Both the position numbers and the translations under genes were made by a program. From NCBI GenBank assembly GCA_905178155.1, contig CAJINV010000004.1, positions 3,319,320 to 3,383,319 of the forward strand: DNA of 64,000 nucleotides. The letters are read 5' to 3'. Shown one piece after another: positions 6,417-62,263 of the stretch. How positions within the stretch are numbered: the first letter of the stretch is position 1; each line of letters starts with the position of its first letter. A model generated the notes under the pieces. It was not told the origin of the DNA, did not search any database, and saw nothing but the letters and a program-made list of their open reading frames with translations. This DNA is from Amoebophrya sp. A120. Taxonomy: Eukaryota > Protista > Dinoflagellata.

Positions 6417-9400
6417 GCTTATGGGAGTGTCAGAATCGAAATCGTCAGAGTTGAAATAATTTGTGATGCATAAAACGGATACCAGTTGGAAGCCCAATTT
6501 CCAAGCGGCGCATGACAAATTTGAGTAGAACCGAAATCCAGTCTGTCATGCTGTTTGAGTAAGGAAGACGCCTTTTGTCATGCTACTTTAGCAGCTCTAT
6601 TTCTACTCCGCAACAGGCTTACAATCTGCCTCCCTTGCCTACTCTGCAAGACAGGCACTTTGTGGGTTGCATTTTATGCATCACAAACTATTTCAACTTT
6701 GACGATTTCAATCCTGACACTCCCATACTGCTCGTATCATGTTTGAAATTTGACGTCGTCGAGACACCCGGAGCTGCGGACCCCCTCGTCTTCGATCCCT
6801 CGCGACTTCTGTTCACCAGTTTCAGCTTCTTCTTCTGCATCGTCTTCCCGGTTGCAAAAGGCGCAGGAGCTTCTTCGTGATGTTCTACTTGTTTCCCAAA
6901 CGCGATTTGATGCTGGTGGTCAAACAGGGCCGCTGCGTTTTGGTCAAACTCAAAGGGCGATGTTCTACTTGATGCAGTTGATGGCTGCTGGGCGTTATTA
7001 TCTTCAACTCCTCGTTGTTGACCACTCCTGTTCAGAAGCTTGACAGAGGAGCTACTTGATGCAGCCGGGTAAAACACGAAGTTGTGCTGTTGTTCTTGTT
7101 CCTGGTATCCAGGAAAAAACACCCATCCCCATCAATTTTTTGCATGACAAATAGTGGACTTTATGCATGTTTTGCATGACAAATTGGATGGGGATGGGTG
7201 TTTTTTCCTGGATACCTGGTGCGCTCCCTCTACAAGCGGGACGGCGACGCTTTCGCTTGCCTCGTCTCCGGTCATCTGCGAAGCGGTCGCGTCTACGAGA
7301 CCGTGTACTACGTTGTCCTCCGTACTAGGTGCTTTTTGTGCTGCCGTAGTACCTCCCGCGAGGAGTTGTGCAGCGGGCTCCGAAGGAGCGGACGAGGCCA
7401 CGCCGCTATTGCTTTCTTGGGTCTCCACTAGTTGTACCTTGGTCACAGGGGTTTGCTGTTCGGCAGCAGCTGCAGAAGATCTTTCTTGTACCTGAAGTCC
7501 ACCGTCTCCTTCTACCAAAGCCGCAGGATCGACTGCCGCTGCGTCATCGACAGGCTTAGTTAATATTTTCGACGTCCTGCTTGCCGACGCTGAGTTGTTT
7601 ACAATTTCTCTACTGCTCTTTCGCCCCTCAGCAACAGGTGCCTCGCTTGTTCTAATTTCTTTCTGCGAGCCCGCCGAGGACCCCTGCCGCATCCCCTCTT
7701 TCAACATCTCGTCATCCCCGAGGACGTCGTTCGCAAGCGAAAAAGGGGCCACTTCCGAGGACGCCGGTGTGGCCTTGCTGCTCGACTCCTGCGGCTGTGA
7801 AAGAACAACATCATCGACGTTGTTTTTCAGCGTTGTTGCGCTACTTGTTCTAGCGGGCCCGGACTGACTTGTCTGCGTTTGCCGCCTGTCCATCATGATC
7901 CCCGCTAGTGTGGCCCGTGTCTGTGCAGCGGTTCTTGAAGCTGCTGCAGTTGATGTCCCTGCGACCACGTAATTGTTGTCCGGCGCGTTTTATCAAATGT
8001 AAAAATGTCTGGGTCTGCAAGGTTGGAACTTGTGACGCAGCTAACTTTGTACTCTAAAAACCTCTGTATTGCATGACCAGCAAGAGGAATCTAGTTTGTG
8101 CTACGCGGGGAGGGCATTTGTCATAAGGAGTAGGCATCAGGAAGCCCTCTAAAAATCTGTGATGCTAGGTCGTGCATCACAGACATCCTGGGTCGTGCAA
8201 AATATGCATGACAAACCCTGCAACATTCCAGACCCAGACACTTTTGCATTTGATACGTTTGAAGACAGTACATCACCGTCGACCGCACTGGAAGTCGGTG
8301 TGTGCTGCTCCTGCAGGCCTGTTTGGGGATCATGATTCTCCGCCACCTCTAGTAGAGCAGCTGCGTTGCTCACACTGGGTTCGAGACTTGGGGTGTTGGT
8401 ACCACCACCGTCGTTGGACGAGGAGAGCGCCACGACCCGCGGTTCGTGCAGCTCGCTATCCTCTGGCTCCTCCTGCACCGGCGTAACTTCCGCACTGGAG
8501 GAAAAGATCTGGTTATTTTCGGGCTGTTCTATTACTTCCGTTGGAATGATTTCAGGTTTATCTTTCACACGGCGACTCCGACTCCCCTCCTCCGTCTTTA
8601 TTTCCCTCTTCGGCGGGCCGAACCGGTAGACCTCGTCCATTACCTCGGGTTTCGTGATTGCCTCGATCTGCTCCTGCACCAGCTGTATGCATTGCAAGAG
8701 AAAGAGTATCGTACTAGTATATGTAAATTGCATTACAATTTGTAGTGCCGATTTGCCGAAGATGGGGAATTTGTCATGCGTGATTGCAATTACTACGAGT
8801 ACGATACTTTTGCACAGGATAAGCTGGTCAAAGGCGGCAAGCTGCTTGGCTCTGGTTTCCACCGAGTTAGTCCCCTCGGTCGACAAGACCCGCAGCGTCA
8901 GCCCCGCGGCGCCGGGGAGGACGCCGGGGATCTTCATTTTCATCGTCGGGTCGATGCTCTCGTCCTCGTCCACGCCAGCGTTTAGATTGATTGCCGCGTC
9001 ATACGCCCAGTGGTATTCTGCGTAAAAGAGAACCCGAAGTACTACTTACCCCATAGTCAAACTGATGATGCTCTTCACTCTGCTACACAAGTGCAGAAGG
9101 TTAGACAGAAACGCATGACAAACTTGGGTCCATGTTGTACTTGTAGTCGCCGTTGCATTCGCAGTGAAATATCCACATCAGAAATCGCCTGTCTTAGCTG
9201 ATCCTGATCCTGATGAGTACGGCATCAGCAAAAACATTCCAAAAGAGCCTGCTTGGAAGATGCTCCTCAACCTCATGGGGCTGCGCATGAGACACATTCC
9301 ATTGTAGAAAAGGAAAACTACATGCAAATCCGCATGACAACTCTGGGGTGAAAATTATGGGTACTAACTTCAACTTACGTTTTTCCACAGCATAACCGTT

Positions 9401-12400
9401 CCTGCTGCGCTTTCTCGAACACGGAATGCCGTTTGGACTATGAATTGCAAAAGTATCGTACTCGTATAAATGCATTACAAATTCCCTCAGCATGAGAAAT
9501 GAGATCATTTGTAAATGCGGACTTACCTTAAGAAAAGGATTTGCAATGCAAGACTTGCATTTATACGAGTGCGATACTTTTGCACAGGATATGGACACCA
9601 CGGCCTCCAGAATGTCCGCGGAGTCGGTGCGCCGCTGTATGGGAGCGTCAGGTTTGAAATCGTCAAAGTTGAAATAATTTGTAATGCATAAAATGCATGA
9701 CCCGAGGTACGTGTGTTGCAGAGCAGGCAAGTGAGGCCGATTGTAAAGCCTGTTTGGGGTTACAGCTCGAGCTGCTAAAGTAGGATGAGAAAATCACTCT
9801 TCGTTGCCTAAACAGCATGACAAACTGGATTTCGGGGCCACCGAAATTTGTCATGCGCCACTTGAAAACTGGGCTCCAACTGGCATCCATTTTATGCATT
9901 ACAAATTATTTCAACTTTGACGATTTCAAACCTGACGCTTCCATACGCTGGTGCCGTGTCGTAATCTTGAGCGCCGCTGCGCGCCGCTGCTCTTCGCTCT
10001 GTGTTCGCTGCTTGCTCTCCACAAAGCGACCCAGGGAGGCCTCCGGATCGTGGACAAACACCATGTTGTGGTGCTCCGGACCCGCCTCGTCGCGCAGGCT
10101 GCTCATCCACCCCATCAGGGTTTCTTGGTGGATTTTTCCTGCCGTCCCGTTTTACAGTGAAAAATGCCCCCACCCCCAAAGTTGCAATAATTTGTGATGC
10201 AAAGTTTCCAAGTGAAAACTTTTTGTCATGCATGAAAGGAGTGTGAATCTTTCTGATGCAGAGTCTGGGCGTATATCGCATCGCTTGCATGACAAGCGCC
10301 GCTTTTGCTAGGATCTTTTGCAATGCAAATTTTTGCTATTCACGATTGGAAATCTGTGATGCTGATAGATGCAAGAAGGCGAGTGTTTCCTTGTTTGGAA
10401 AGGTTTGCAATACAAATGCTCCCAAGTTCGGGGATCGTGGGGGCATTTTTCCTTGTAATATCCCGCCGATCTTCTTCCGGGCGCTGGTCCGCAGGGGGTT
10501 GTCGCCGAAGTACGTCTTCAACAACTGCTGCTGCTGGTTCTCCGTGATGCCCCGTTGCTTGCGCCGAAACATCTCGCGGACAAACGCCTGCCGTTGCGCC
10601 ACGGACATGTTGCGGTACTTTTGCACGGTGCTCCCGTACCCCCGCGACGGGTCGCCGTTCTCATCGCCCTTGTGGATTGCAAATATGTCTGGGTCCTCTG
10701 GAAGTCTGTGATGCTGAATTGAGCCTGATTGAAGCGCTTGCAATGGCAGCCAGGCATGACAAGCTTCAGAGACGCCTGCTGATGGTGCCTACCACGCATC
10801 ACAAATTGCGTTTTTGCATGCCCAAGCAAGCTCCTCTTTTGCTGCTCATGCAACACAGAATTTCCAGGAATGCAAGACACGCATCACAAGTTCCACTGTT
10901 CCAGACCCAGACACTTTTGCATTTGATAGCCGTCTTTCCCACGCAAGTGCTCCTCCAGCCGGTGGTTTTATCCTGTGCAAAAGTATCGCGCTCGCATTGC
11001 AATCATGCATTACAAATCTTTCTCTTGAGGTAAATCAGCATTACAAATTTGATTTCTCATGCCGAGGAAATTTGTAATGCATTTGTACGAGTACGATACT
11101 TTTGCAGTTCATAGGTTTTCCGCGTCCACAACCGGATCCGCGTGTCGCACCCGGTAGGGAGACTTGTCCTTTTCTCTACTCTTTGCACCACGACCGCCTT
11201 CTTGGGTATTACCCGCAAGAACCTTGTTCCGCTTCCTGGATCCGGGGCCGCCCGACCCGGCGCGGTACTGCATGGTTGGAAACGCACCGTACGCCGCGCC
11301 GCCGGGGCTGTTCCTGCTGGCGACCCCGACCGTCATGTCGTAGGCTGCCTCCGCGGGCACGCGGTAGGGCGACTGCCCGGCGGTGATATCAAATGCAAAT
11401 ATGTCTGGGTGTGGAAGAGTCATGCTGCTTTTGCATGACACAGAAGGTCTGGCATGGCAGCTCTAGCATCACAGGTTTCGAGAGGCTTTCGCTATTCCGA
11501 ATCCGCATCACAAATGCCCCATTTTGGTGACAGAAAGTGGGCAACTTTTGCTGCCTGTGCATGAGAGATTTTTCTGCGTTGTGGAATGCGCATCACAAGT
11601 TTGCACTCTTCCAGACCCAGACATATTTGCAATGGATAGGTGAATTCGTACCGCAAATCGCCCCACCCCGAGTGGTCGCCGCTGCGGGCCGTGGTTTATC
11701 CTGTGCAAAAGTATCGCACTCGTACTAATTGCAAATATGCATGACAAATATTCTTCCTAAGGTAAAACAGCATTACAAATCCCATTTCTCTTCGTGCCAA
11801 AAGCAAAATTTCTAATGCAATTTATACTAGTACGATACTTTTGCAATGCATATGGTTTTGCCGACGCCTACGTGCTTGCCGAGATTCTCCAGATCGTGAA
11901 AAAAGGGGCGGCTCCACGTGTGGCGCACCGGGTCCTGGGCGGTTTGCACGAAGGCACGGTGCCGGAAGAGCTTGTGGTCGTCGATCCACAAAAGCCGCGG
12001 GCCGCAGTACTGTGTTTATGTTGAACTTTAATTTTTTTATCCGCTTCACATTTTACGTACTATGAGGAAAACTTCAAAAAAATCGAAAAAGCTGCTATAT
12101 GTGAGTACAACTGCTGCAGCAAAGAAACAGATGAGCATGAGGCAATCACCTTCGTGTAAACTCTAAATACGTTTGCGATTTGGTTCCAGTAGTACGGCAG
12201 CGAGGTGATTTGCGGGTTGTTCTGGAGCAACAAGATCACCAAGTGGGTGTTATACGACAGCGGCCGCAATTGGCTGCAGCTCCTCAGCTTGTTGTTTCGC
12301 AAATCCAAGTACCGCAGCTCCACCAACGTCTCCAAATGCTCCACCTTTTCGATCTTGTTCGAATCCAGCCCCAGCTCCTCCAAGGCCTCACAGAGCAGCA

Positions 12401-13826
12401 GGTTTTTCGTGGTGGTCAAGAGGTTTTTCGACAAGTCCAGCTTTTGCAGGGAGGGCAGATCGAGCACCGGGAGGACGCGCAGCTGGTTCTCGGACAAATT
12501 CAAAGTTTTCACCTTTTGAAACTCAAACTGGTTCAGATTGTACAACCCCATCTTCGACAGGTCGACGTTCTCCAGCAGCAACACCCGCTTTCCCGCGGCC
12601 TCGGCCCCGACGGCCCGCTCCTGTAAAATCTTCTCCCGGGTTTTCTTGGCCTGGTGGATCTTCGCAATGTGCTGGAGGGAATCGTCCATCGCGTCGACTG
12701 CGTGTTCGTGCCGGAACTCCCGAAGCGCCTGCTGCCGGGAACGCGCCTGGTGGACGAGAGGCAGAACATGAGAATTGTTTTATTCAGCTATTGGATGCAG
12801 AAAATTTTGCGTGCTGGTGTTGCTGCGTCGAAGAAGATTCGATAAAATTCTTACCGTGGTGGAGCTAAGGATAAAGTAAGTTAGTATCTATGTACTCAAT
12901 CTCGATATGACACTTCATCGTTGAAGGTATGGAAAAGATGAGAAATGAATCATGCATAAAGTACTTAGCCTTACCTCCGCGACAACATTAGTGCCGGTCT
13001 TTCCTCTGTCGCGACCGGTAGGCGACCCGCTCCGACTTGCCGCGTTCTTGCCAGCCTGGTGGGTCGTGTCCGTGTGATATGACAGAAATAAAGTTCGCTT
13101 CGCTGCTACTTTTTCTTTTCTTGGACGGGAGTGATGTTGTCATACATATTGCTGCTGATTACAGGTTGCTCCTCGCCTAAATATGAAGCCGCGTGACTCG
13201 TTAACTACTCCTTGAGCGAGCCCGAAAAAGCTGCGAAAAACAAAAGGGAGTACATTACCTGTTCATCACGGCCCGAAAGAGGTGGTTCTGACGGGGCGGA
13301 GAAGTTGTAATTTGGCTTGCCCAGTGGTGGCGGTTTGGGGATCCGGAGGGACAGCTTTTTCGACGCGATCTGTGGAAAGTGATCATGTCATGCAAGTGCT
13401 ACTAAAAACGAGCTTGGAAAAACAAATGGAACTACGATATTGCTATGTTGATAGATGATCAACACAAAAATCTGCAGCAACGAAGACAAAGAACACTTTA
13501 GAATTAGACTCCGATCGCTCTATTAATTAATATACCTCTTTTCGAAAACCGCCAATATTGGTGACGTCGCGACCCCCGATCAGTGTGAAATCGGGCCCAG
13601 GCGGATTTTCTGGTGCATGGTGGTCCGGCTGGAGATTTTTTCCTGACATAAACCCCGCAGCTGGACCAGGAGATCCGTCTTCCGAGTCCACTCGCAGCGA
13701 AAACTTCCGGGTGAGACTCTTCACCGATCTGAGCTGCTTGCCAGACGAGCTGGACGCTGCGGCGCTGTCGCCCACTGCAGGTCCGCTCCCGAAGCTTGCA
13801 ACTTGCTCACGCGACTCGTCCAACAT
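6345..13826 (-). CDS. Large multi-exon protein with SDS22-like leucine-rich repeats and LRR cap, long low-complexity C-terminus (single-gene model tentative)
   Basis: LxxLxLxxNxL repeats in 12060-12689; GT-AG join gives cap-like YYWNQIAN|YCGPRLLWIDD; downstream ORFs join in frame across 11 introners and short GT-AG introns; the join around 9100-9380 is not resolved. Confidence 0.65.
6420..6727. mobile_element. Introner family A
   Basis: Family A TIRs; perfect TSD ctgct. Confidence 0.92.
7106..7214. mobile_element. Minimal introner (109 bp), family D-like
   Basis: Perfect 28-bp TIR tatccaggaaaaaacacccatccccatc; TSD cctgg. Confidence 0.92.
7991..8255. mobile_element. Introner family C
   Basis: TIR tatcaaatgtaaaaatgtctgggtctg / cagacccagacacttttgcatttgata; TSD cgttt. 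Confidence 0.92.
8686..8821. mobile_element. Introner family B (in frame, stop-free)
   Basis: Ends tatgcattgcaa..gtatcgtact / agtacgatacttttgcacaggata; TSD agctg. Confidence 0.92.
9439..9591. mobile_element. Introner family B
   Basis: Family B TIRs; TSD tggac. Confidence 0.92.
9638..9945. mobile_element. Introner family A (reverse orientation)
   Basis: Family A TIRs; TSD cgctg. Confidence 0.92.
10150..10460. mobile_element. Introner family E-like
   Basis: TIR ttttacagtgaaaaatgcccccac / gtgggggcatttttccttgtaata; TSD tcccg. Confidence 0.88.
10671..10928. mobile_element. Introner family C
   Basis: Starts TGT instead of TAT; TSD gccct/gccgt. Confidence 0.88.
10969..11113. mobile_element. Introner family B
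   Basis: tatcctgtgcaaaagtatcg..cgatacttttgcagttcata; TSD ggttt. Confidence 0.92.
11387..11638. mobile_element. Introner family C
   Basis: Family C TIRs; TSD ggtga. Confidence 0.92.
11697..11852. mobile_element. Introner family B
   Basis: Family B TIRs; TSD tggtt. Confidence 0.92.
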
Positions 13827-14561: not shown

Positions 14562-15626
14562 TCACTCGTCGACCTCCATTTTTGCTGGTTCTTGTTCCCC
14601 GCTCTTGTTGCCTCCCTTCTTCGGCTTTGATCGCACTTTTTTCTTCGTCATCGCAACGTCTGCTTGCTGCGTTTCTGCTGATACGTTTGTCGTTGGAGCA
14701 GGCGCCGATGTCAGATTTGCAGCAGCTGACGCAGGTGCGGCTGTTTGAGAAGTCAATTTTTGTCGATTGGACATTGTAGTTGTACTTTATATTCTCTCCT
14801 TCATTATCATTTCTCTACAGTAACGAAAAAGATAAAGATCCGCTCTTGCTGCGATGCAGTACCGCTCTTTGCTTAGGAACAATAAAGTAGCAAAACTTAA
14901 AACTCTGTCATACCAGCCGCAGCCTTTGCCTCCCCCTCCGCTTTCCTTCGCGCTTTTTTCTGGGCCCGGTAGGCTTCCCGCTTGGGTTGCTTTTTCGCTT
15001 TCCTTTCCGCGTTGATGACCTGCTGGGAATTCTCCTTCGTGCGAATAATATGCATTGCAAAAGTATCGTATTCGTATAAATGCATTACAAATTCCCTCAG
15101 CATGAGAAATAAAATTTGTCACGCGGATTTACCTTCGGAAAAAAATTTGTAATGCATGACTGAAATTACTACGAGTACGATGCTTTTGCACAGGATAAAT
15201 AAACGCGGTCACCAACTCCTTGTTCTTCTTGCTGTTCAGCGCCAAGGCGCGCCCGTTGCGGTATGGATTGCAAAAATGTCTGGGTCTGGAAGATTGCGAG
15301 ATTTGTCATGCTAGTCTGGCATAATTCTGCACTCTGTATTGCGTGGCCACCAAGAGGCCGTCTTGCCTGTCATGCAAAAGGAAAAGCGCAGTTTCTCATG
15401 CGAAATACGCAGGACAAGAGCACGAAGAGACTTGTCATGCTTGGTGGTTCATTACAGAACAGTTACTGTTCACGGGCTTGCATCACAAGTTTCCAGACCC
15501 AGACATTTTTGCATTTCATATGCGGCACTTCTTCACGATTTTCCTCGCCAGACTCTTCGTCTTCACCCGGTGCGGCTTCACCTTCAACAGCCCCCGTCTC
15601 TTACCGCGCGCGTGCAGGTTCGCCAT
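14562..15626 (-). CDS. Small Lys/Arg-rich protein of unknown function, 4 exons
   Basis: MANLHARGKRRGLLKVKPHRVKTK..KKCR|NGRALALNSKKNKELVTAFI|RTKENSQ..AKAAA|AAPASA..KMEVDE; two introners and one GT-AG intron. Confidence 0.7.
15049..15197. mobile_element. Introner family B
   Basis: Family B TIRs; TSD aataa. Confidence 0.92.
15262..15520. mobile_element. Introner family C
   Basis: Family C TIRs; TSD tgcgg. Confidence 0.92.
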
Positions 15627-16151: not shown

Positions 16152-19100
16152 TCATATCCATCCGTGCGCCCGCACCCCGGCTTTTCGTAGGCGGAGTAAG
16201 TAGTCATACGGAATCCGAAAGTTTCCAACGCGATTTAGTGTCGCAGAAGATGAGGTCCTCTCTCCTCGTCTTGTTTGCAAGCTGGTGCTGTGGTCGACCT
16301 GCGCCACTCCACGACCTCGACCACGACCTCCGGGGAGCTGCATGTTCAGGTTGAAGAGCGTGTGAGTGTGCGGCTCCCAAAAAAACTCGAAAAGACGCAG
16401 CGGTAACGGTAAGCGGGTGCTCGCATTAAGTCGTGTATTTGACTTTGCTTCCAACGCATCGAGCAGACCGTCTAAGAACTCGTGCTCTAGAACGGGGTTA
16501 TCCACATCCAGCTTGATTACACAGACTGGCAGTCGTACTTGCCGTAGGCCTGTTTTCCTGTTCTGACCCAGAATGGTGGTCCTCTGCCCGTGAAGATCTG
16601 CAGTGGCTGAGGCTTCGTCTGTCTCTACAACTTCGTCTGGTGGTCTGCGGTCGTTGAATCCAGTTCCAGAGGTTGTTTTTGCGCTTCCTTGGCACAAGTC
16701 CTTTACGTCCTCCAGCAACTCGGAAGCGCTTGTCACCGCATGGCGAACTGTAAGCACCACCGCATTATTTTCATCTCGATTTCTATCACTAGCGTGACTT
16801 TCCTCTTCATCAGAGTTGGTAAGCACCTGCCGTCGTCGTGTCCTTTCGAGCGAGAAAGCGAATTGGGTCCGCTGATCAATCGCGGCATGAATCTTTCGTA
16901 CCTGAAATTCATTTTCTCGTGCTGAGCAACAACATGAACTGTCTCCGCTCTCCGCATGGTTTTCGACTGTCTGATGCGCAGTCGTGTCATTTAGTGACAA
17001 AAATTGACGATCTCCACAACAACACCCCGCTTGATGTTCCAAGTAGGCTAATGAATGCGCTTCCACTTGCCTTTGATACCTTTGCGGATCGAGTTTTTGC
17101 TTCTCGTAGACAATGATTTCGTCAAAACTGACCTTATTTCGCCTGTACATTTCCACGAGCCACTTGGTGCTAGAACCTGTGTCGCCTGTGTCGTAGTAGC
17201 CACCCCCGTATCCTGTGCAAAAGTATCGCACTCGTATTGCAGTCATGCATTACAAGTCTTTTCTTATAGGTAAATCCGCATTGCAAATTTTATTTCTCAT
17301 GCTGAGGAAATTTGTAATGCATTTAAACGAGTACGATACTTTTGCAGTTCATACCCCGATATCGATCAGAACTACTTTTGGCGAAGGTGCTGAGGACAAA
17401 CCTCCAGCAAAGTCGCTCATGCTGGTGTCCTCGTTTCCATGATTATGATCTGCAGGGTGTATGGCTAGGGGTCGTACTAGAGTAGATGATACCTCCGGCG
17501 CAGAAAACAGACTAGCAAAATAAAAATAAGCTACATCTTCTTGCCTCCCCAAAACTAAGTAGCTGCGGTCCGTCGCCGCTGCGTAAACGGCGCGCGCGAG
17601 GAGTAATCCAAGGCTCAGACTTTGTTTGATGTCCGCCTCTTCTAAGTCGATTCCCTTAGCCAGGCTGGAAAAGAGTTTTTGCGCACCGGCTTCCAAACTT
17701 TTGATCTGAGGGTCGTCCTTTTCCGCTGCAATTGCATCCTGGTCTGCAGGACCACCAACACCCGAAGGCAGCAAAAGAACCTCCTCGAGAAGAAAGGCGT
17801 TCAGTAGCTCACTTAGCAAATGACGCGATGGGTTGTCGTGCCGCCTCGCTGTGGGCAGTCGTGTGAGATCAGGCTGAGAAGTACTTCTAGACAAGGACCG
17901 GTCTCTACTTGTGCCGGACGCAGCCGAGCCGGCCAAATACTGCACCGCGTGCCGCAACATGGCGGAGAGGGTCGTCCTATCGTCGAAATCCAAGACATTT
18001 GTGGCGTCTGTCGTAGGTAGGGCCGCACTCACACGGCGAGGACCTGGATCAGCTTCAGCATCAGACGTACTATCTTCGTTTCCACTTCCAACCAGGTGAA
18101 ACGCCGCAAACACATCCCGCGGCCAGGCCTCCAACAGTATCCGCCGTTCCGCTTCGGAAAGCCGCAGTCTCTCGCTGTAGTACTCCAGCAAATTTTATCC
18201 AGGAAAAAAACACCATCACAATCACACTTAGGAGGTTTTGCATCAGAAATTTGTCTCGTATGACAAATTTTTCTTGTATTGCAAAAACACAAAAGGAAAC
18301 TTGGTTGGATACCTATAACACTTGACTGTGATGCATTTTTGCGCATGACAAAAATTTTTGTATTGCAAAAATGTGCAAAAGTGATTGTGATGGTGCTTTT
18401 TTCTTGAATAAATTTGTCGTCACGCACGGCCACAGTGCGTGTCGGAGCAAGAAGGCCAAGGGCTCCAGAGGGGTAGAAGAGGATGTAGTTGAATTCGTCC
18501 ACTGTAGTAGAGACGGTGCTTTTTCTGATGTCGAGATTTGTGCACAACTTGTAGTTTTTTGTCGTCGTACATGATAGCTGTAGAACTCCTTGTCATGTCC
18601 AAAACTGGTGCCAACATCGTCTTTGCGACAACCCGATATGACGCAGCTCGTCGGAGGTCCAGCCAGAGGCTGTTGGTCGGTTTTTGTCTCCGTCTCGCGA
18701 CCAGACACGCGGTTGTTCGTGTTCCTCGTGGTCGTGCCGCAACAAAGTGGGCCCAACGCATTAGAAGTTGTCCCCCAGTATGTACCTGTAGTTCGTGCGC
18801 TCCACTGTTTCAATAAGCGCGTGGCATTGCGGTTTCTGCATGGGGTTTCTGCCCAATCGGGGTTTGCCAGCCAAGCCCGCTCCAGTGCGCTGGACTGATA
18901 CTGCAGTTCGGATTCTTGTCCAGGTTCAGCCTGTGCTGGCAGCGCGGTGCTCTTGCTTCTCGGCTTCGTTATGGTTTGCGCAACTACGCCGGATGCGATT
19001 CCAATGGTCTTGAGAAAGCGAACGACAAAGCGCTGGCATAGTTCTGCGAAAGAAAAACTACCTGCGTGGTACCTGCAGCGACCGCGAGTTCGGTTCCGCA

Positions 19101-35805: not shown

Positions 35806-35971
35806 AAAGGATTGCTCAAAATCAAACGAAGATAGAGTACAGTAGCTCTTTACACCAGCGATAGGGATAACGGTAGGTACGATACAGATCGAACAAGGTA
35901 CTAGGCTCTTGCTGGGTTCGAAATAAAAGATTATTTGAGAAAAACTTTACAATTTTTCCTTTCAAATACTA

Positions 35972-40700: not shown

Positions 40701-41949
40701 CGATATCCATTGCAACTATGTCTAATTCTGGAAGCTTGCAAAACTTATCTATGCAGTTTTTCCACGCTCCACAGAGTCTGGAATGCAAGCCTGCGCATCA
40801 CAGGTTCTGCACTTTCTTGGTCGTTGTACACGTAATGCCTATTCTCCATGCGAAATTCCCTCTCAACAGCATGGCGAGAAGTGCAAGTGGGCATTATTGT
40901 ATTTACAAGTTGTCACGCATGCCAGATTTTTGTGTGACCCGCACCGCGCATCACAAGTTCGTTCTTTTTCGGAGGACCCAAGAAACATATTTGCAGTGCA
41001 TACCCGGCTCCACTCGGCGAAGCGGTAGCGGTAGACCCAAATCTCGCTCGTGGACGGGGAAGTGAGGGCCATCGTGTCCTCCCCGTGAAAAGCCAGCCGG
41101 CTGACCCCGACGGTAGTCGCCTTGCTTGAGAACACGCGTAGTGGCTTATTGAAAGGAAAAATCCCCCCTCCCCATATCAAGACGAAGTTTCTCATGCTGG
41201 ATTTCCGTACATAAATGCGCGCTGTCTTGCAGTAAGGCATCGCCGCCTGATCCTCAGCCTATGTAGGGGCGTTTGGGTCTACGTCTAGTTGTTTAGCATT
41301 AGAAACGGCTGTCCCCTAGGCCCAACAGCATGCCACATGGCTTCCATAATTAATGGCGCGGAGGCCTCTGCACTTGTCCTCTGGCAAGACAGAAGTTGTT
41401 TGTGGTCTCAAATCAGCAACACAAATTTTCGGAAGCATACCTTTTCGATGTGGGGAGGAGGGATTTTTGCTCTCAATACGGCTCTATGCATTGCAAAAGT
41501 ATCGTACTCGTATAAATGCATTACAAATTTCCTCAGCATGAGAGATAAAATTTGTAATGCGGATTTACCTTAAGATAAAGATTTGTAATGCATGACTGCA
41601 ATACGAGTACGATACTTTTGCACAGGATAGGCTCCACCGCACAGACCAGCTCTTCGAGTTCTCCGAGGTATCAAGTGTAAAAATGTCTGGGTCTGGAAGA
41701 ATCCAACTTGTCATGCTGATTTTGGATTCTAAAAAAATCTGTATTGCATGAGCAGCAAAGGGAGTCCAAGTTTTGCTACACGGGAAGAGCATTTGTCATG
41801 CAGTACAGGCATCAGGAAGCCCTCACAAAATCTGTGATGCGAGGGCATGCGTCACAGTTATCAGGAGTCATGCAAAATGTGCATGACAAACCTGGCAATC
41901 TTCCAGACCCAGACATTTTTGCATTTGATACGAGGTGCTGCTGGCTCAT
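37727..41949 (-). CDS. ARPC1: ARPC1 (Arp2/3 p41 subunit)-like WD40 protein with 6 introners
   Basis: Rejoined SPSTSEIWVY..LKEHADVVAD..LVSCGHDRCAYVW..YQPELV..RWSPDASRFAV..PFG..SWV..QDSSI..PLSCVAF..ACGFDYVP..H..FATCGLDGKVLQWD follows the ARPC1 motif order as I recall it. Confidence 0.7.
39927..40083. mobile_element. Introner family B
   Basis: Family B TIRs; TSD acccg. Confidence 0.92.
40380..40653. mobile_element. Introner family C-like (diverged)
   Basis: tatccaatgcaaacacgtctgggtctgg..ccaaatccacacatatttgcactgcata; TSD actgg/actcg. Confidence 0.85.
40704..41002. mobile_element. Introner family C-like (diverged)
   Basis: tatccattgcaactatgtc..acatatttgcagtgcata; TSD accga/cccgg. Confidence 0.83.
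41147..41478. mobile_element. Introner family F
   Basis: TIR tattgaaaggaaaaatcccccctcccca / tggggaggagggatttttgctctcaata; TSD tggct/cggct. Confidence 0.9.
41485..41629. mobile_element. Introner family B
   Basis: Family B TIRs; TSD ggctc. Confidence 0.92.
41669..41930. mobile_element. Introner family C
   Basis: Family C TIRs; TSD cgagg. Confidence 0.92.
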
Positions 41950-46274: not shown

Positions 46275-46356
46275 GAAAGTGGACGTCGAGAGTGGAAAGT
46301 GGACGTCGAGACGTTTTATTCAAGTGGAAAGTGGACGTCGAGACGTTTATATTCAA
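46275..46356. repeat. Short tandem duplication, 3 copies
   Basis: gaaagtggacgtcgaga x3 in intergenic DNA. Confidence 0.8.
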
Positions 46357-50336: not shown

Positions 50337-53300
50337 TCAAACTTCATGCCTGCAGGTCGGACACACTTTGTTTACCCGAAGCCACTGGTCCACGCAGTGC
50401 GTGTGGAAAAAGTGCAAACAGGGCAACGTCCGCACCTCCACGCACTCCGGCGCTTCGCCCGTCTCCAAGTCTGGCTCGAAGTATATGCACTGCAAAACCA
50501 AAAGCATCGTACTCGTATTGCAATCATGCATTACAATCCCTTTTCTTAGGGTAAATCCGCATTAGAAATCTCAGCTCTCATGCTGAGGAAATTTGTAATG
50601 CATATTTATACGAGTGCGATACTTTTGCAGTGCATAAAGTAGCCCTCCAGGCAAATCCGACACGTCCTATCGTCTTCGGCGAGGTTGTCGTATCAACTGC
50701 AAAAATGTCTGGGTCTGGGAGATTGCGAGATTTGTCATGCTAGTCTGGCATGATTCGAGAATCTGTATTGCACAAGCACGAAAGAGCCCTCTTAACTGTC
50801 ATGCGAAAAAACAGTTTGCCATGCGGAATACATAAGACATGGCAGCCACAAAATTTGTCATGCGTAACTGCGTATTGCGCCGCGTCTATCATTCACTTGT
50901 AGCATTACAAGTCTCCCGACCCAGACATATTTGCAATGCATATGTCGGTTGCGCGAACCATTCTCCGCGGCAACGCCGTGATCTCCTCGTGCGTGGCTTC
51001 CTTCGCCTTCGTCTCCTCGTGCTCCTGGATTGCAGAAAGGAGCGCGTATCCTTTGTAAAAACGTCCCCACCCCAGAGATGTCATGCAGATTTGCAATGAC
51101 AGGAACGCTTGTAATGCGCATCGCCACGAGGGGCATTTCTAGTCGTGTTTTGGCATTTGTAATGCTGTAAATAGGATAAGCAGATGGATTCCTGATGCCG
51201 CTGGCCTTGCTAACCTGCACAACGGTACGGACTGCAACTTGTCATGCGTGGCTCCCAAAACTTCTGGATTTGTGTTGCTAAGTTCCCAACTTGACTCTGG
51301 TGTGGGGACGTTTTTACTCAGGATAGCGCGTGTAAGGGGATCAGGCGGGGCTGGCCGCGGGACGAGGTAGAAGTACTACTAGAGGCTGATGATGACCACG
51401 CGCCACCACGAGCACCGGGATCATGATCGGCATGACCAGTGGAGCCACTACTGCTACCGGCACCACCAGTGGACGACGTCGTGTCGACATGACCTCCCGA
51501 CGAAGTCGATGACGCACCGTCCATCCCCGGAATCGAGCGCAGCTCCACCATGGGGCCCCGGATCTTCTGCATTTCCCGAGGGTCGATCGGCTCCCCGGCC
51601 TCGGGGATAGAGTGGATCACGTGTCGCCGCTCATAGGGGTTGGTCGGGACCATCTGCCCACAGACGCACAGAACCAGCTCCGTTTCCGCCTTTTTGTAGC
51701 GCAGGGTCTGCTTGCAGGCGAAACACGTGACAAACCGGGAGTTCTTTTTGTTCATCAATGCTATCATGTCTGCCTGCGAAAAATCATCTATCCCAGGAAA
51801 AAACTGTTACAGTTACACATTTGTAGTCAGTTCAGCAACACAAATTTCTCTGCATGAGAGAGAAAACTTGTAATGCAGAAATCCTACGGGAAAACACCTA
51901 TGAAACGAGGCCTCTATGCGTATCCGGCATGACAGAGTTGGTCTGTCTTGCTTTGGCCTGCAACACAATGTGTTACTGTAACACTTTTTTCTTGCGATAT
52001 CATCGTCGTCGTGCCGACTGAGGTACTCCACCATGTCATCCTGAGGAAACACTTAGTACCCACCCCAAAGCTGTGATGCGAATTTGCATGCTAATGTATG
52101 ATGTTTCTGTATGCGGCTCCTCATGGGAGGCGTAGTTTTCTATCAAGCTCGTGGCGTTCTTTGGGAATCTGTCAACATGCTCAACCTCAATCATCATTCG
52201 CCTTTGTTCCTACAAAGGCGTCGACTGGACTTGCAAGCTGTTTTTCTAACAGCTGTCCGCGCTTGTTTGCCTGCTTTCCACCAACGCACCCCGTTGGCGG
52301 TGCTTGTGCGTGCTTGTTGCAGTTCCCCGCTAGCTTACGCTACTACCTGATTGGAATTTGTGAAGCGCCCCAAGGAGCAGACTCAATGTCTGTGCTACAG
52401 CGAGTTGTTGGTCACTAGCTTCTTATCATGAGGAGCCTTAATGCCGATCGTGGGGAACGAGGAGGAGCGTGCAGGTGTGTGAACATGTCACCTGGTGATG
52501 ATCCTAACCAGCCGAGATCTTTCCGGCCGCCATGTTGAACTTCGAGTGGAGACCTGCGGCAATGATCTCGCGTGAGAACCTAAGACCTTGTGATCAGAGA
52601 TTGATCTTCTGCTGGTTGTAACAACCAATCCAAGACCCGGCAAGCAGAACTAGAGCGGCGGATCTGGGAGCTTTTCCCTTGATCTATCGTGATCTCGTCA
52701 GATCATCTTCAAAGCAAAGCAAGTGGAAATCTAAGCGATTTCTACAAACAGAAACAGCCATACGTGACCCGTTTGACAAAGTTGCCCCGACCCAACTTCT
52801 GCCAGCTTCTGCTGCAGCCTAAGCTCTGGCTGCAACTTGTGCTGCGTTTTCCGGAGTTGCGTGCAGCTACCGCTGCAGCAACATCTGCCGACTGCAACAC
52901 CCTGGAGGTCGCTGCTGCGCCACCATATTTGTGTTGCTACTTCTACTTTCATGTCTCGCACTCGCTACAACATACGTCATCGACGAATGTTGTGCGAGGG
53001 GACTTTTGCCCTTTCCAGCGCCATGCGCTGTTCTGGCACTCCAAGTGCGGCATAGCCACACAGGGAGGCGACTACAGCCCTGAGTATGGGTGGCTCGTCC
53101 GCTGCTCTAGTGCAAAGACATATACGGGGGGAAGGGGGCTAGTAGTTCTTACCTTTCCCGCTGGGGGAATGGTTGGGCTCATAACTCTGTGGACGTCTCA
53201 AGCGTCAGGGACTGGGCATGCTCACTAGCATGCTGTCCGAAGATAGAGAACAGAGTTACTATCTAGGCACCTACCTAGTAGGTACTACGGAGAGAAAGGG

Positions 53301-55610: not shown

Positions 55611-58600
55611 TCACTTCGCCCCGGTCTGAATGATTTGACACAGCTCGCCGATATTGTTTGCCTTGATCGCCTGGCGACAGGCCTGCACGTATCAAAATGA
55701 AAAATCCCCCTCCCCATATCAAAACGAAATTTCCGATGCTGGATTTGTGTACACGACAAATGCGTTTTGTATTGCAGGAAGGCATTGCGGCCAGATACTC
55801 AGCCTAGGTAGAGGCGTCTCGGTCTAGCTGTTCAGAATGGCAAACGGCAACGGCTCCCCTTTAGGCCCAACAGCATGACAAATCGCTTCCATCATGGGGC
55901 GGAAGCTTCTGCCCTTGTCATCTTGCAAAAAAAATGTGATTTCTGACCTCAAATCAGCAGCACAAACTTTCGGAAACATCCCTTTTCAATATGGGGAGGG
56001 GGAGATTTTCCTTTCCATAGCACGGTGCGGGACTTGGCGGAGCCGCACCGAAGCCGCCCGGCGTTCTGCAGTGCTTGATTCACCTTTTTCAAATGGGACA
56101 GAAGCTCTTGGTAGTTCCCCGCGCGCTTTGTGTGTTCCGCAATCATGTCCCCATTGGTGTTCTGCAGCACCTGGTACGCCCGTCGCAGGTTCTTCATGTC
56201 CGCCAGAATGCGGTAGTCCTCCGCCTTCACTACCAACGCCTTTACCAGGTTCTATGGAATGCAAATATCCCTGGATGTCTGGAAGGTTGCAACTTGTGAA
56301 GCTGTCCTTGGAAGCTAAAAAAATCTGTATTGCTTGACCAGCAAGAGGAGTTCAGTTTGTGCTAAGCGGAGTGGGCATTTCTCATGCGGAGTACGCATCA
56401 GAAGGCCCCTTAAAAATCTGTGATGCTAGGGCATGCATCACAGGCATCAGGAGTCATGCAAAATATGCACGACAAACCTGGCAATCCCAATCTTCCAGAC
56501 CCAGATATAGGTATTTGCAATCCATAGGTTCGAAGAGTCCGCAATTTCCGCCGTCAGTTTCAGCCGCGTGGCGTTGTATCAAGAGGAAGAATCCGCCCTC
56601 CCCATATTGAAACGGAAATTTCTGTTGCTGCATTTGTGTACACAAATCAGCTCTGTATTGCAGTGAGGCACTGCAGGCAAAGCCTAAGCCTGCTTAGAGG
56701 TGTTTTGGTGTAGGTGCTTAGCATTGCAGAGGCCTGCCATGTAGGCGCAGCAGCATTACAAATCGCCTGCATAGAAAGGCGGATTCTTTGGATTTGCCCC
56801 CCTGCAAGAGAGACAGGATTTGTGGTCTCAAATCAGCATCACAATTTTTTAGATAAAGCATACTCTTTCAGTATGGGGAGGAGGGATTTTTCCTCACAAT
56901 ACGTTGTGGCCCTCGACTTGCTTCAAAATCCTGGTGTATCCTGTGCAAAAGTATCGTACTCGTATTGCAATCATGCATTACAAATCCTTCTGTTTAGGTA
57001 AATCCGCATTACAAATTTTATTTCTCATGCTGAGGAAATTTGTAATGCATTTATACGAGTACGATACTTTTGCAGTTCATATGGTGAGCTCCTCCAGTTC
57101 CGAGGGAAAGTGCGCCGCAGCATCCAGCTCCTTCACCTGATTTAGTTTTAGATTTTCATTTTGAACATATTCATAATAATCTGCGACGCATAAAGTGCCA
57201 GGTGCAAAGTGCCTGTCTTCCTTGCAGAGCAGGTCAGTGAGGGCGATTATATATACGCCTGTTCGGGGTTAGAGATATTAGAGCTGCTACAGTAGCATGA
57301 CAAAAGATGTGCTCTTTGCAAAACAGCATGACATCAAACTGGATCGATGGAGGCGCCACTAAAATTCGTCATGCTCCAGTTAGGAATTGGCCTACCACCT
57401 GGATCTTGGCGTCGATTTTCTGCATCACAAATTATTTTAAGTATGTCGATTCTGACACTGACGCTTCCATATCATAACGATAGCCATAGCCTGTAGTACC
57501 TGTAAATGCTGCGTGAGGTCCTCTATAATCTCGGCCGCCAATATCCCACGAAAAAGTGTTACAGTTACACATGTGTTGTCAATTCAGCAACACAAATCTT
57601 CTCTGCATGAGAGGGAGAACTTGCAATGCACAGACCATAAGGCAAAACACAGATGAAATGAAGCTCGGATGCAGTTCTGGCATGCCAGAGGTTGTCTATC
57701 ATGCTGGGCTTGCAACGCAATGTGTAACTGTAACACTTTTTTCTCGTGATAGCCAACTCCAGGTCGTCGGTGCAGGCGACGAACTGGAGCTCGTGTCCTT
57801 AGTAAAAAAGTCCCCACCCCACAGTCAAGTTGCAAACTCTGCAACACAAATCCGGGAGTTTTGGCAGCCATGCATGACAAGTTCGTCTTTGTAGTGTAGT
57901 GCAGGTATTACGAATTCCAAAACAGGATTGGAAATCTTCAATGCTTCTCATGTAGATGCGCATTTAGAAATGTTCCTGTCATTGCAAATCTGCATGACAA
58001 CTCTGGTGTGGGGACGTTTTTGCTCAGGATAGCTCGTTGCGGTTGTTCGGGCTGTCGGAGGTTTCCAGCAAGAGCGCCGTTTGCTTCCGTAGGGAAACAA
58101 ACTGGCACTGCAGGTGCGCGTTGGAGTTGCTCGGGTTCGGGTTCTATCCTGTGCAGAAGTACTATCGTACTCGTAGTAATTGCAGTTATGCATTACAAAT
58201 CTTTTTCCTAAGGTCAATCAGCATTACCAATTCCATTTCTCATGCTGAGGAAATTTGTATTGCGATTTATACTAGTACGATACTTTTGCAGTTCATAGGT
58301 TCTTTGCGTTGATAAAATTCTTTGCGAGCCATTGCCAGATGCGGCTCGCGGTTATCCAGGAAAAAAACTGCGTGAGTGTAAGTTTCTTGGAGGAATAGCA
58401 TCACAAGCTTGCTCTGCATGACACAGAAAACCTGTCATGCGCAGCTAGAACGTGAAAACACGTACGAAAGTTGCTTCTGATGCATGTCCAGCATGACAGG
58501 TGTAACAGTTTTGCATTTTCTGCAACACAAAGTTACACTAACACAGTTTTTTTCTTGGATAGCAGTGACGGGAAGAACAATCTTCACGTTGCCGGCGGGC

Positions 58601-61600
58601 CGGCGTAGCTTCCCCTCGGTGACGAAGTGAAACATGGAGAACTATCCTGTGCAAAAACGAGTGGTCCTCACCAAACTGCTAATAGCTGTCATGCAAAATA
58701 ATTTTATCTGCATGCTTGAAATGTCTCTCTTCATGCGGAGCCCGATGTTGTTGACGCGCAATTTCTAGTGCTGTTTTGAAATTCGCGATGCTCGAATCTT
58801 CAGCATGAGAAGCTAGTAGATCTGTGACGCTGCTGCACTAGCTCAACGCGATTGAGTACAACATTCCGAACCCAAACTTGATGTCAGGCGCAAGAGCAGC
58901 CAAAGCTCCCTGTTGATTTGATTTGCAGATAATTTCCAACTTGACACCTATGGGGTGGGCAAGTAGTTTTTGCACAGGATAAGAACTTGGGCAGCATCAC
59001 CGTCTGCTCAAAGGTGTGGTACTGCTCTGACGTGGCGGACACGCCACAGTAGCAGTGGATCTTCATGTGGATTTCCGCGTTCTTGGTCGCACTGATGGAA
59101 ACGGAGTTTTCGTTTTTCGCGGGCGCGAAGTGCGTCAACTGCGCCTCCTGGTCCTCAAAGAGGTGTTCCGCGTAGATCACGCACCCGCGGATCACGCTGT
59201 AGTTGTTCGTGGCTAAGCGAAGCCGCATATCGTATGTAAAAACGTTCCCACCCCAGAGTCACGATGGTGATTTTATTGCTACACAAATCAACAAGTTTTG
59301 GCTGTTTCGCATGACAAGTTTAGACTCGTAGCGTAGTGCTGTTTGAGGTAGTGCAGCCGCATGACAAATGGACTACCTTATCCTGATTCCAGCATCACAA
59401 ACTTCCAGATTGATAGCATGAGAAAATGTCTCTCATGGGGCTGCGCATAAGAAAAATTTTAGTAGGTAAGTATGCCATTTTGCAATACAACTCTGGGGTG
59501 GGGACGTTTTTACACAGGATACCGCAGCCCGTCGGGGCTGGTTTCCAAACTGACCTGCAGCTTGGTGTCCGTGGGGATCAGACCCGCGCGCCCCCCGGAC
59601 TCCTTCATCTGACGGATCTGCTCCTGAGATATGCAATACAAATTTCCCGTACATGTACAAGATGCATCACACCACTTTGGGGTGTAAAACTTGTCATGCT
59701 AAACTAGGAAAGAAGACAAGTTCTGCCAAGCAGAGACCGCATTTGTACGTGAACGGGAAATTTACTGTGGATATGAGAATCGAGAATACAATTTGTAGAG
59801 TTAAAGCTTTTGGTATCACTAAGAATGATCTTGCAGGATCATAAGAAAAACAAATTCAGAATAGATTTTGCAGCGATGTAGACCACGAGAGTTGACGAGA
59901 GAAGCGAAATCAAAAACAAACCACAGAAGAGCAAAAAAGAAACAGATACGTCGAAGCTTTTCAGCTCGTTCTGCAGGTCTTGTCTTTCCGCGAGCATCGC
60001 ACGATACGCCTCGTTGTCCTCCTCGGTTTTCGTGTCTGCCGTCACGAGACCCATGTTTTTCTCCGCTTTTTTCTTTTTTTCCATCGATTTGGCCGCCGCG
60101 GACGAGGCACTGGCCCCGCTGGCCGCGGCCTGCTGCTGCTCCGCTAGAAACCCGTGCACCTCGCCGGTATTCGTGATCGCGATGATGTTTGGCATGCCGT
60201 CGTTTCGGTACCTGCCGATCACCAGTGAGGACATGTTGTTCGCCGCCAGCGTCTCCTTGAACAGGATTTCGCCCGTCATCTGGTTTCGGACCTCCACCTT
60301 CCCGGTCGACCACCCTATCACAACGTGCCGAATCCCGCCCGAGGCGCCCTCCAGCAGCTTCAGCCCCCGGACCTCGTTCTTCGCCGCCACCCGCCAGAGC
60401 CTCTGCGCCCAGTTCCCGCCCGCCTGAGACATGGCCAGACTGGAGCTGGAGGCCGAGGATCCGCCCTGGACCATTTTGTAGACGCCGACAGTGCCGTTTT
60501 TCAAGGCATAGGCGAACATGGTGGAGGAGATGCACTCGAGGTGGGTGACAATGTCCACCTCGGTTAGGGGGCTGCCCACGGAGGAGCAGGAACCTGGTTT
60601 AGAAGTTGATGTATCAATCTTGAAGGATCTTGTTTTACGCAGATTGAGAATCCTTTGCAAGTCTACACTAAACTCGGCAATCTATGATCGCTCATTTGTG
60701 AATCGAATCTCGTCCTCCGGGAGCTGTGCAGTGCTGAAGAAGCTAATGCTCATCTACATCAACATCTTGTAATCCGATGCATGACAACGATTTTCATGTA
60801 GTTCTCTGTACCTCCCCGTAGCGAAAACGCTGCGAGCTCGTTGTCCTCCGTGGCGACGAGCGTATGAGAAGGAACAACTCCGCCTGATACTCCCTAGAGG
60901 CATCTAGTTTCACAAGAAGCGAATCAAAGAAAAAAGCGCATACGCGTTCGCGTCGGGTCACTGCATAGCTCGACATCCGATCTACATAATTTGCACTTGC
61001 ACTTCCTTGTGCCATAATGAGAAACGCGAATGAGGATCAGTACATCTAGTTGTACAACTAGATCACACTCATAAAGAAAATCCGCGATGCAATCCGGTCC
61101 TTCTGCGAAGGCCACCGCCGACACCGTGTCGCCGACCACGGACCAGAACAGCTCTGACCCCTCCTGATCGAACCCCTGGACGCTGCAGTGCCCGCCGACG
61201 AGGCACACGGGGCCAAACGGCTCGCGCCGCCCGAACCGGAGACGGGTGCAACCATCGTATCCTGTGCAAAAGTATCGCACTCGTAGTAATCGCAATTACG
61301 CATGACAAATCGCCTTCCTAAGCTAAAACAGCATGACACATTCCGTTTGTCATGCTAAGGATCTTTGTAATGCAATTTCTACTAGTACGATACTTTTGCA
61401 TTTCATACGTCGGTAACTTCCTTCATGAACAGCTCAGAATTGTCCTCGATGTCGTACCTGGTGTTGAAAAGCGAGCGAGAGAATGTTTGTCATGCAAAAA
61501 TGAAATGGCACGCCCAAGCTCTCATGCATGACAACCAACATCAAATCGTTTTGGGCTAGAAACAATAAAACAAGCCTTAGTAAACTAGTATACGCCATGA

Positions 61601-62263
61601 CATTCGCGGGGGTCCCGACGAGGATGACATCTCGGTCCGGATTTTTCTCCGCCAAAGGCCCAACCGCGATGTCCGTATATGCAGTGCAAAAGTATCGTAT
61701 TCGTAATCGTATAAATGCATTACAGATTTCCTCAGCATGAGAAATAAAATTTGTAATGCTGATTTACCTTCAGAAAAAGATTTGTAATGCATGGCTGCAA
61801 TACGAGGACGATGCTTTCGCACAGCATACCGTAATCTTCTTGTTGATGTTCAGGTACTGCTGGTTGGCTGGGCTATCAAGTGCAAAGATGTCTGAATCTG
61901 GAAGAGTGCATGTTTGTGATGCTTGTCTGGCATGACTCTTAAATCTGTCATGCACATTACCCAAGAGCTCCATTTTTCTGCCATGCAGAAACGTACTTTG
62001 TCAACATGCAGAATAGGCAACACCTAGAAGCGCAGAAACATGTCATGCTGAGCCACCACTTGTGGCCTCATCATGATACACCGCCCACCATCACAAGTTT
62101 CCAGACCCAGACATCTTTGCAACGCATATGGGCTGTGGATCAGCACTTTCCCGGCCGAGGTCGCGGCGGCCAGGTAGGTAGTGTCGCTGTTGGACTTCCC
62201 GAGGACGCAGAGCCCATCGAACACCTGGTTCTTCAGCGAGAACTGAAAGGTGGAAGTTAACAT
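55611..62263 (-). CDS. BBS2: Bardet-Biedl syndrome 2 protein (BBSome subunit), 13 introners plus several GT-AG introns
   Basis: [127 protein letters not shown]. Confidence 0.95.
55690..56019. mobile_element. Introner family F
   Basis: Family F TIRs; TSD gcacg. Confidence 0.92.
56253..56526. mobile_element. Introner family C
   Basis: Family C-like TIRs; TSD ggttc. Confidence 0.9.
56577..56901. mobile_element. Introner family F
   Basis: Family F TIRs; TSD cgttg. Confidence 0.92.
56937..57081. mobile_element. Introner family B
   Basis: Family B TIRs; TSD tggtg. Confidence 0.92.
57176..57471. mobile_element. Decayed family A element lacking its left TIR, inside GT-AG intron 57137-57499
   Basis: Body resembles 9638-9945; right end ctgacgcttccata; tcata at 57171-57175 and 57472-57476. 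Confidence 0.75.
57542..57751. mobile_element. Introner family D
   Basis: Family D TIRs; TSD gccaa. Confidence 0.92.
57794..58031. mobile_element. Introner family E
   Basis: Starts TGT; family E TIRs; TSD gctcg. Confidence 0.9.
58145..58297. mobile_element. Introner family B
   Basis: Family B TIRs; TSD ggttc. Confidence 0.92.
58353..58561. mobile_element. Introner family D
   Basis: Family D TIRs; TSD gcggt/gcagt. Confidence 0.9.
58643..58981. mobile_element. Introner family G
   Basis: Perfect 16-bp TIR tatcctgtgcaaaaac; distinct body; TSD agaac. Confidence 0.9.
59228..59521. mobile_element. Introner family E
   Basis: Family E TIRs; TSD ccgca. Confidence 0.92.
61258..61407. mobile_element. 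Introner family B
   Basis: Family B TIRs; TSD catcg/cgtcg. Confidence 0.92.
61678..61828. mobile_element. Introner family B
   Basis: Family B TIRs; TSD ccgta. Confidence 0.92.
61874..62128. mobile_element. Introner family C
   Basis: Family C TIRs; TSD tgggc. Confidence 0.92.

Follow-up and report, generated by a model that had tools for sequence, protein, structure and literature searches.

How does a cell remove from its transcripts a repeated element that lies in its genes either way round? The question is raised by 64,000 nucleotides of the marine parasite Amoebophrya sp. A120 (contig CAJINV010000004.1, positions 3,319,320 to 3,383,319; this whole stretch is called the window below), whose genes are interrupted by short repeats with TAT at one end and ATA at the other. 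A first-pass annotation of the sequence had argued that, as two families of these repeats (A and B) occur in both orientations within genes of a single strand, directional signals such as a branch point or pyrimidine tract are unlikely to be needed, the symmetric terminal stem being the signal. Both orientations are solidly established as tolerated in host genes, and the elements leave transcripts together with one copy of a short duplication. The step from there to the dispensability of directional signals is another matter.

The repeats are the published introner elements of Amoebophrya A120, a class already known: A120 protein models match the window, and the ends (TAT, seven bases, AAA) and 5-bp repeats are as published. 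The available text of Farhat et al. 2021 (PMC7789003) describes elements with TAT followed by seven variable bases, then a run of A, a hairpin and non-canonical borders, together with direct repeats of 3-5 nt, 29,850 repeated introns and co-oriented genes. The window elements are likewise repeated, non-canonical and missing from transcripts; compared with that text they share organism, class, ends, repeats and hairpin, family A differing in lacking the A run at positions 11-13. At least 53 are intact, of 109-339 nt, with a TAT start and an ATA end (altered in three), and the RNA 5′ end reads TAT in all 53; four older or interrupted ones begin at 9014, 43039, 52037 and 60863. Nine of the elements are singletons, the others making up seven families with 3-15 copies each. 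Positions 11, 12 and 13 are A in 45, 45 and 52 of the 53, family A being the exception to the run. The direct repeat is a perfect 5-mer in 43/53 and carries one or two mismatches in the other ten, while perfect repeats of 4 or of 6-9 nt occur in none; the 5-nt repeat served in part as a filter for the catalogue, and an unfiltered first scan gives the same picture. Terminal inverted repeats, a fixed-length target duplication, small size and many copies are all present, as in miniature inverted-repeat transposable elements (MITEs), which are non-autonomous DNA transposons. The inverted repeats span about 30-50 nt in family B and 30-60 nt in family A and, beyond the terminal triplet, differ widely in sequence from family to family. 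An Rfam search returned no match.

A larger sample was drawn from at least 152 metagenome-contig loci sharing a 20-nt end motif, which may be of another strain than A120; statements on loci below refer to those listed. They hold 368 distinct elements, for 315 of which a coding model assigned the host strand, the remaining 53 being left out because the strand was not called confidently or the element lay too near an edge. A perfect 5-nt duplication flanks 239 of the 315, a mismatched one the other 76, and 75 belong to none of the window families as assigned. None of the loci overlaps the window exons.

The first-pass annotation had named 16 coordinates for copies of A and B, and at every one an element begins with the ends described. 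Copies at 11697, 39927, 50484 and 61678 were absent from its list. In the lines below, coordinates are those of the window, and the host strand, where called, is minus.
8686..8821, family B, reversed, with the CCTG arm lying 5′ in the RNA; repeat AGCTG; LRR gene; gone as element plus 5 nt in public model P0004
9439..9591, family B, reversed; repeat TGGAC; LRR gene; family alignment and public model
10969..11113, family B, CCTG first on the plus strand (RNA 3′ end); repeat GGTTT; LRR gene; public model
11697..11852, family B, CCTG first; LRR gene; public model
15049..15197, family B, reversed; short basic-protein frame, which survives at +2, +5 and +8 only
17209..17353, family B, CCTG first; repeat CCCCG; of the offsets +3 to +7, only +5 gives the 835-aa frame
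39927..40083, family B, reversed; WD40 gene; public model
41485..41629, family B, reversed; 6 nt from 41147-41478; outside model P0003, removal inferred
43039..43210, family B, reversed, decayed; RNA 5′ end UAG; metallophosphoesterase gene
43745..43905, family B, CCTG first; metallophosphoesterase gene
47237..47388, family B, reversed; MORN-repeat gene
50484..50636, family B, CCTG first; within a RING finger
56937..57081, family B, CCTG first; BBS2; the strain A25 ortholog aligns across the site gap-free
58145..58297, family B, CCTG first; BBS2; site adjoins a gap in the A25 alignment
61258..61407, family B, CCTG first; BBS2; repeat with one mismatch; gap-free against A25
61678..61828, family B, reversed; BBS2; gap-free against A25
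1085..1394, family A, orientation 1; repeat with two mismatches; at +5 a frame of 280 aa is open
1746..2045, family A, orientation 1; family alignment and frame test
2729..3035, family A, orientation 1; outside any coding frame found, probably untranslated or intergenic
6420..6727, family A, orientation 1; LRR gene; gone in RNA-like record 9 and in P0004
9638..9945, family A, orientation 2; LRR gene; public model; no own-copy depth in run X3 at 9706, 9707 and 9784
47994..48303, family A, orientation 2; MORN-repeat gene
57175..57471, family A, orientation 2, truncated; within GT-AG intron 57137-57499
4445..4654, family D; mismatched direct repeat, with an informative removal junction

Family B is present in the window as 8 copies with CCTG first on the plus strand and 7 reversed, not counting the decayed reversed copy at 43039, and opposite orientations meet within one gene, as had been claimed, both in BBS2 (61678 against 61258, 58145 and 56937) and in the LRR gene (8686 and 9439 against 10969 and 11697). 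Intact family A counts four copies in orientation 1 (1085, 1746, 6420 and additionally 2729) and two in orientation 2 (9638 and 47994, to which the truncated copy at 57175 may be added). These assignments do not hang on the symmetric ends: B copies match their family at an identity of 0.69-0.86 when oriented as assigned, against 0.61-0.69 when turned round, and interiors stripped of the inverted repeats give 0.74 vs 0.53 for B and 0.74 vs 0.50 for A. Relative to the host, family B divides 67 vs 62 in the loci and 75 vs 69 once the window is pooled (p 0.68), which shows no bias, and all 11 families with at least three copies among the loci occur both ways. For family A an excess of 10 vs 2 in the loci (p 0.039) becomes 12 vs 6 with the window added (p 0.24), and we claim no bias for it. 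In the literature searched, from which subscription journals are largely absent, no paper on the orientation or mechanism of A120 elements was found, and the orientation result has not been stated for A120 as far as these searches go: the available text of PMC7789003 uses 'orientation' for genes only and mentions neither element orientation relative to the host, nor the pairing features described below (unpaired positions 4-7 and the skew at pair 21); in PMC9860276, as available, the pipeline allowed opposite-orientation matches, and in PMC12130899, likewise, diverse A120 introners are listed, orientation in A120 being addressed in neither.

That the hosts are all on the minus strand had also been stated. 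Every test points that way, short of a proof for each window gene. Pfam matches above cut-off fall in 6/39 minus-strand frames and 0/11 plus-strand frames, as well as in 4/9 short minus-strand exons. The cross-validated coding model calls minus at 47/47 window elements, being right for all 47 at 6 kb and in 30/30 confident calls at 620 nt. Finally, three protein models of A120 can be placed, in exact exon blocks, on the minus strand, with local identity of 99% and 100% for two matches. Their host genes are as follows.
55614..62263, minus strand, BBS2, 751 aa; 13 elements, one old element, four GT-AG introns
3927..13826, minus strand, LRR (leucine-rich repeat) protein, 1475 aa; 12 elements, one old element, five GT-AG introns
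37730..41240, minus strand, WD40 protein; public model of 922 aa, starting inside element 41147
BBS2 of A120 is 69% identical to its A25 ortholog, the alignment being gap-free across 61678, 61258 and 56937.

Removal length was read from these three models. Their 39 introns comprise 28 catalogued elements, two old elements and nine GT-AG introns. All 28 catalogued elements that are removed as an intron of their own leave as the element plus 5 nt, and so do both old elements, despite decayed arms and diverged duplications (9014-9394 and 60863-61073). The exceptions are the element at 59630, which sits in a GT-AG intron, and model P0003, which starts inside 41147 and does not remove it. If retained, 49 of the 53 elements would break every reading frame; longest-open-frame tests discriminate little for most short genes, and at 41485 the frame test fails at +5 with the chosen start peptide, opening only from another ATG, so that it is not counted as support.

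RNA-like contigs come from one run (X3), whose RNA nature is a guess. Record 9 among them omits 7101-7214 (114 = 109+5) and 7986-8255 (270 = 265+5). Its unlisted part amounts to 98 nt, that is 45+53, from which it follows that element 4445, the GT-AG intron 4700-6359 and the A copy at 6420 were removed; the same record halts at 8680, just before the B copy at 8686, and then continues for 912 nt. Record 12 halts at 17203, and the depth of the next bin, 7.44, is the value computed for a join to 17354. No own-copy RNA-like contig covers the A copy at 9638. Seven elements are absent from these contigs, two directly and five by inference, and in this partly indirect way the contigs agree with removal of A and B in both orientations.

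What may be concluded from orientation is more restricted than had been supposed. Since the inverted repeats extend over 30-60 nt, either orientation presents the same RNA ends, covering the places where a donor, a branch point and a short U run would lie; linear directional signals remain compatible with such ends, and their dispensability does not follow. The first-pass annotation had reckoned with a conserved branch motif in actual use on both strands as a finding that would speak against it, and candidates do stand on both: in family B something resembling UNAY, around -41 to -53, and in most families a run of U from -14 to -11, any use of them being a conjecture from sequence. What orientation independence does imply is that every needed signal is confined to the inverted repeats. 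That leaves as candidates the UAU/AUA termini, the weakly pairing stretch 4-7 and the helix of positions 8-28.

At the ends themselves there are no fixed splice dinucleotides. A canonical-like register is possible in 3/53 window and 23/315 locus elements, and GT-AG in 1/53 and 11/315, so that a GT or GC donor paired with an AG acceptor does not characterize them. The sequence of the duplication is free: over 239 duplications of the loci neither G at position 5 (27% against a background of 28.5%) nor AG at positions 3-4 (22/239) is enriched, and their bases resemble the composition of the flanking exons, with no pyrimidine-purine junction pattern. No pyrimidine tract is common to the 3′ ends of the families (0.40-0.80 pyrimidine), and the last 25 nt are not richer in pyrimidines than those of the canonical introns of this genome, which in the models all start with GTA and end with CAG (9/9). 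This sets the elements apart from the introns of Polarella glacialis and Aureococcus, which, in the part available of bioRxiv 10.1101/2020.10.14.339549, derive from DNA transposons with target duplications and function in either orientation, GT/GC/GA and AG sites being recruited from element or duplication, with an orientation bias. Here 50/53 elements are without canonical register, family B is unbiased and the duplications of the loci have no G or AG enrichment.

The position of the cut can be approached through mismatched duplications, with which reads already available could fix the actual splice register. At most three bases of the duplication remain within the intron's 5′ end for 4445 (read from RNA), 10671, 40380 and 60863, at most two for 9014, and at least one for 40704; together the six constraints are compatible with a cut after 3 or 4 of the 5 duplication bases. 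In the case of 4445 the RNA retains the 5′ repeat copy at repeat position 2, so that an AG lying one base beyond the element is unused. A codon-use check of the register met no stop-informative case. Terminal UA has one change among RNA 5′ ends against nine among 3′ ends (p 0.021, post hoc; counted over 57 elements of the window and 160 anchor-called ones of the loci). With the GTA starts of the canonical introns, this weakly supports a directional 5′ signal.

Towards its tip the stem is at its weakest. Among the 315 locus copies the paired share at positions 4-7 is 0.43, 0.56, 0.52 and 0.32, against 84-95% for positions 8-14, and in family B pairs 8-28 are mostly more than 90% Watson-Crick. 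One pair stands out in the 144 B copies pooled from window and loci. At +21/-21 the RNA has U.A in 71, U.G in 51, C.A in 10, C-G in 10 and other combinations in 2, so that U.G prevails over C.A by 51 to 10 (p 1e-7). Each arm taken by itself has the skew (p 6e-5 and 8e-4), as does every subset of the loci; the window alone has 6 vs 2, in the same direction (p 0.29). The variant is scattered over the tree (41 changes against 42.6 when shuffled) and unlinked to subfamily markers, and no other column in family B reaches or nears the Bonferroni level for dependence on host direction. We take the skew, which was not found in print in the literature searched, as a sign that element sequence depends on the direction of host transcription. 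In predicted helix cost U.G adds 0.0 and C.A +4.7 kcal/mol, and because of this difference a purging of helix-breaking insertions would explain it. Such a purging is opposed by the lack of a skew at any other pair, by the scarcity of C-G and by the lack of a general strand bias; the skew also fits a strand-specific change at insertion. A branch point at -21 was ruled out, since conservation of the A there is lower when it lies at the 3′ end. A comparison of own-arm with other-arm complementarity (overall p 0.001) was not used as evidence, the effect being absent in B (-0.16) and expected from subfamilies.

The account that we favour, tentatively and with not quite an even chance of being right, is that the elements are removed, along with one copy of the duplication, by a relaxed spliceosome guided by the hairpin. 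The elements would be MITE-like DNA transposons inserted at random orientation, whose RNA, either way round, would start with UAU and end with AUA. Positions 8-28 are predicted to pair, and the helix would bring both ends together, leaving the poorly paired positions 1-7 as an open 5′ end. The cut would lie within the duplication, past the third or fourth of its five bases. In the latter case the intron would start N-U-A-U, the GUA donor of this genome lacking the initial G and recognized without U1; the helix, not an AG, would then define the 3′ site. As available, PMC7789003 reports for A120 the U2, U4, U5 and U6 small nuclear RNAs (snRNAs) and nearly all spliceosomal proteins, U1 snRNA not being detected, and in its Table S4 all nine commonest non-canonical sites of A120 have T second, those of A25 being TT-NN. 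It is also possible, although here we incline to doubt, that a structure-reading route is at work, in which the helix and the UAU/AUA ends suffice, both cuts are measured into the duplication and no acceptor is defined by sequence, for tens of thousands of introns, the skew at pair 21 then reflecting selection on the helix. Any transposon copy would then be a ready-made intron in either direction. Were removal guided by structure, this would explain how some 30,000 insertions (the figure of the available text of PMC7789003) were absorbed at arbitrary coding positions.

Several observations weigh against the hairpin-guided spliceosome. A spliceosome with a residual preference should leave G or AG enrichment in the duplications, yet there is none. 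The T-second sites of Table S4 may be due to aligners that favour GT-AG-like placement. Of the register constraints, five of the six rest on gene models, tests of mismatch direction gave p 0.10 and 0.41, and for the old element at 60863 a register other than the model's suits the A25 residue better. The asymmetry of the ends fades for the whole terminal triplet (4 vs 10, p 0.18) and for UA in the loci alone (1 vs 5, p 0.22). As for the helix, G.U is not in general excess (64 vs 53 in B with pair 21 set aside, 50 vs 50 in the window); at pair 21 C-G numbers 10 against the 37 expected from independent arms, and a 5′ C is not rescued by a 3′ G (p 0.63). Lastly, removal as a lariat would be a supposition, and what RNA support there is for removal derives from contigs of a single, presumably RNA, run. 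The proposal that the symmetric stem is the signal thus keeps part of its ground: both orientations, free duplications, the lack of a pyrimidine tract and the U.G excess at pair 21 speak for it, and the weak tip of the stem, the lack of any other G.U excess and the equal folding of sense and antisense elements (p 0.85) do not.

The reading closest to that proposal, and the strongest competitor of a spliceosome, is an endonuclease with a ligase, independent of the spliceosome, which would recognize the symmetric helix with its UAU/AUA ends, cutting into each of the two duplications at a fixed distance, as proposed for the nonconventional introns of euglenids. We regard it as a serious contender that is rather doubtful on balance. 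It accords with the free duplications, the scarcity of canonical-like registers (3/53 and 23/315), the unused AG next to 4445, the preference for U.G over C.A and the undetected U1 snRNA. The nonconventional introns of euglenids and diplonemids, in what is available of PMC11282704 and PMC12621601, resemble the window elements in having ends that pair, short direct repeats and non-canonical junctions and in lacking a pyrimidine tract, and the euglenid ones exit as circles (PMC11282704); their junctions are pyrimidine-purine, in contrast with the flat duplication sequence of A120. Such an enzyme would not account for the weakly greater conservation of the 5′ than of the 3′ terminal UA, nor for the resemblance of N-UA to the GUA donors of the genome in both strains, and no candidate enzyme was identified here. 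The MITE-derived introns of Fritillaria borealis also argue against it: in the available texts of PMC11282704 and PMC13326754 they have, like the window elements, inverted repeats and target duplications without GT-AG, and are reported to be removed by a modified U2 spliceosome. They differ in preferring AG-AC and AG-AT borders and in keeping U1, whereas in A120 there is no preferred 3′ dinucleotide here and U1 snRNA is undetected.

It is improbable, in our judgement, that linear motifs within the inverted repeats alone matter, the stem being a by-product of transposon symmetry and the skew at pair 21 a strand-specific change at insertion or a preference of the 5′ arm. The equal folding of sense and antisense copies, the lack of G.U excess elsewhere and of rescue of the 5′ C would suit this view, as would the fact that G at -21 is as frequent in the least diverged copies (22/55) as in the most diverged (21/49), independently of subfamily markers. 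There is, against it, no general A>G strand bias (129 vs 121), and since the inverted repeats differ between families beyond the triplet, a common linear 3′ signal is hard to name.

We set aside as very improbable anything other than RNA splicing, be it DNA excision at some life stage in the manner of the internal eliminated sequences of ciliates, or an artefact of reverse transcriptase jumping between direct repeats across a hairpin (on which no paper was found), for, although either route would ignore orientation and take out just one copy of the repeat, DNA-like contigs (run X1) cross exon-element borders intact at 40-46x with no alternative letters (at the joints listed and in one stage, and contigs drop rare variants), the RNA-like run contains element sequence from loci elsewhere and has depth 0 in an intergenic bin, and BBS2, 69% identical to A25, needs 13 removals, so that an artefact cannot be the whole explanation.

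Concerning the transposon side of the elements, a GCATNACA-type motif occurs at 14.3/kb within them and 0.58/kb outside, remnants being found in canonical introns as well. The motif is possibly a transposase-binding site, a candidate on sequence grounds; as a common branch point it was ruled out, its distance to the 3′ end varying across families. A transposase search in A120 found none, according to the available text of PMC7789003. A fold-back element of 1.27 kb (35969-37243), with 78-nt inverted ends 99% alike and nested inverted arms, adjoins an open reading frame of 572 aa (34231-35946, minus strand) for which there is no Pfam family and no usable Atlas match. An element remnant lies at 730-830, and another element is truncated by the end of the window (63909-64000).

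Elements also occur next to, or inside, one another. Those at 47490-47736 and 47742-47949 have the middle copy of the duplication in common (three copies in total); the MORN frame requires the loss of both, and there is no net exon between them. Elements 41147-41478 and 41485-41629 are 6 nt apart, with overlapping duplications, and removal of 41147, 41485 and 41669 opens the WD40 frame up to an upstream ATG. At 52037-53788 an element of 1.75 kb harbours an inner insert of 1.4 kb flanked by 39-nt direct repeats, and its excision fuses PUB and RING frames into a single open frame. The element 59630-59773 lies within the GT-AG intron 59624-59949 and ends 6 nt before the AG, so that either the branch region of this intron is element sequence or the element leaves first. 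Lastly, at 4893-6416, in a GT-AG intron of 1660 nt, a duplicated segment of exon and donor flanks an insert of 1.45 kb with 30-nt tandem repeats.

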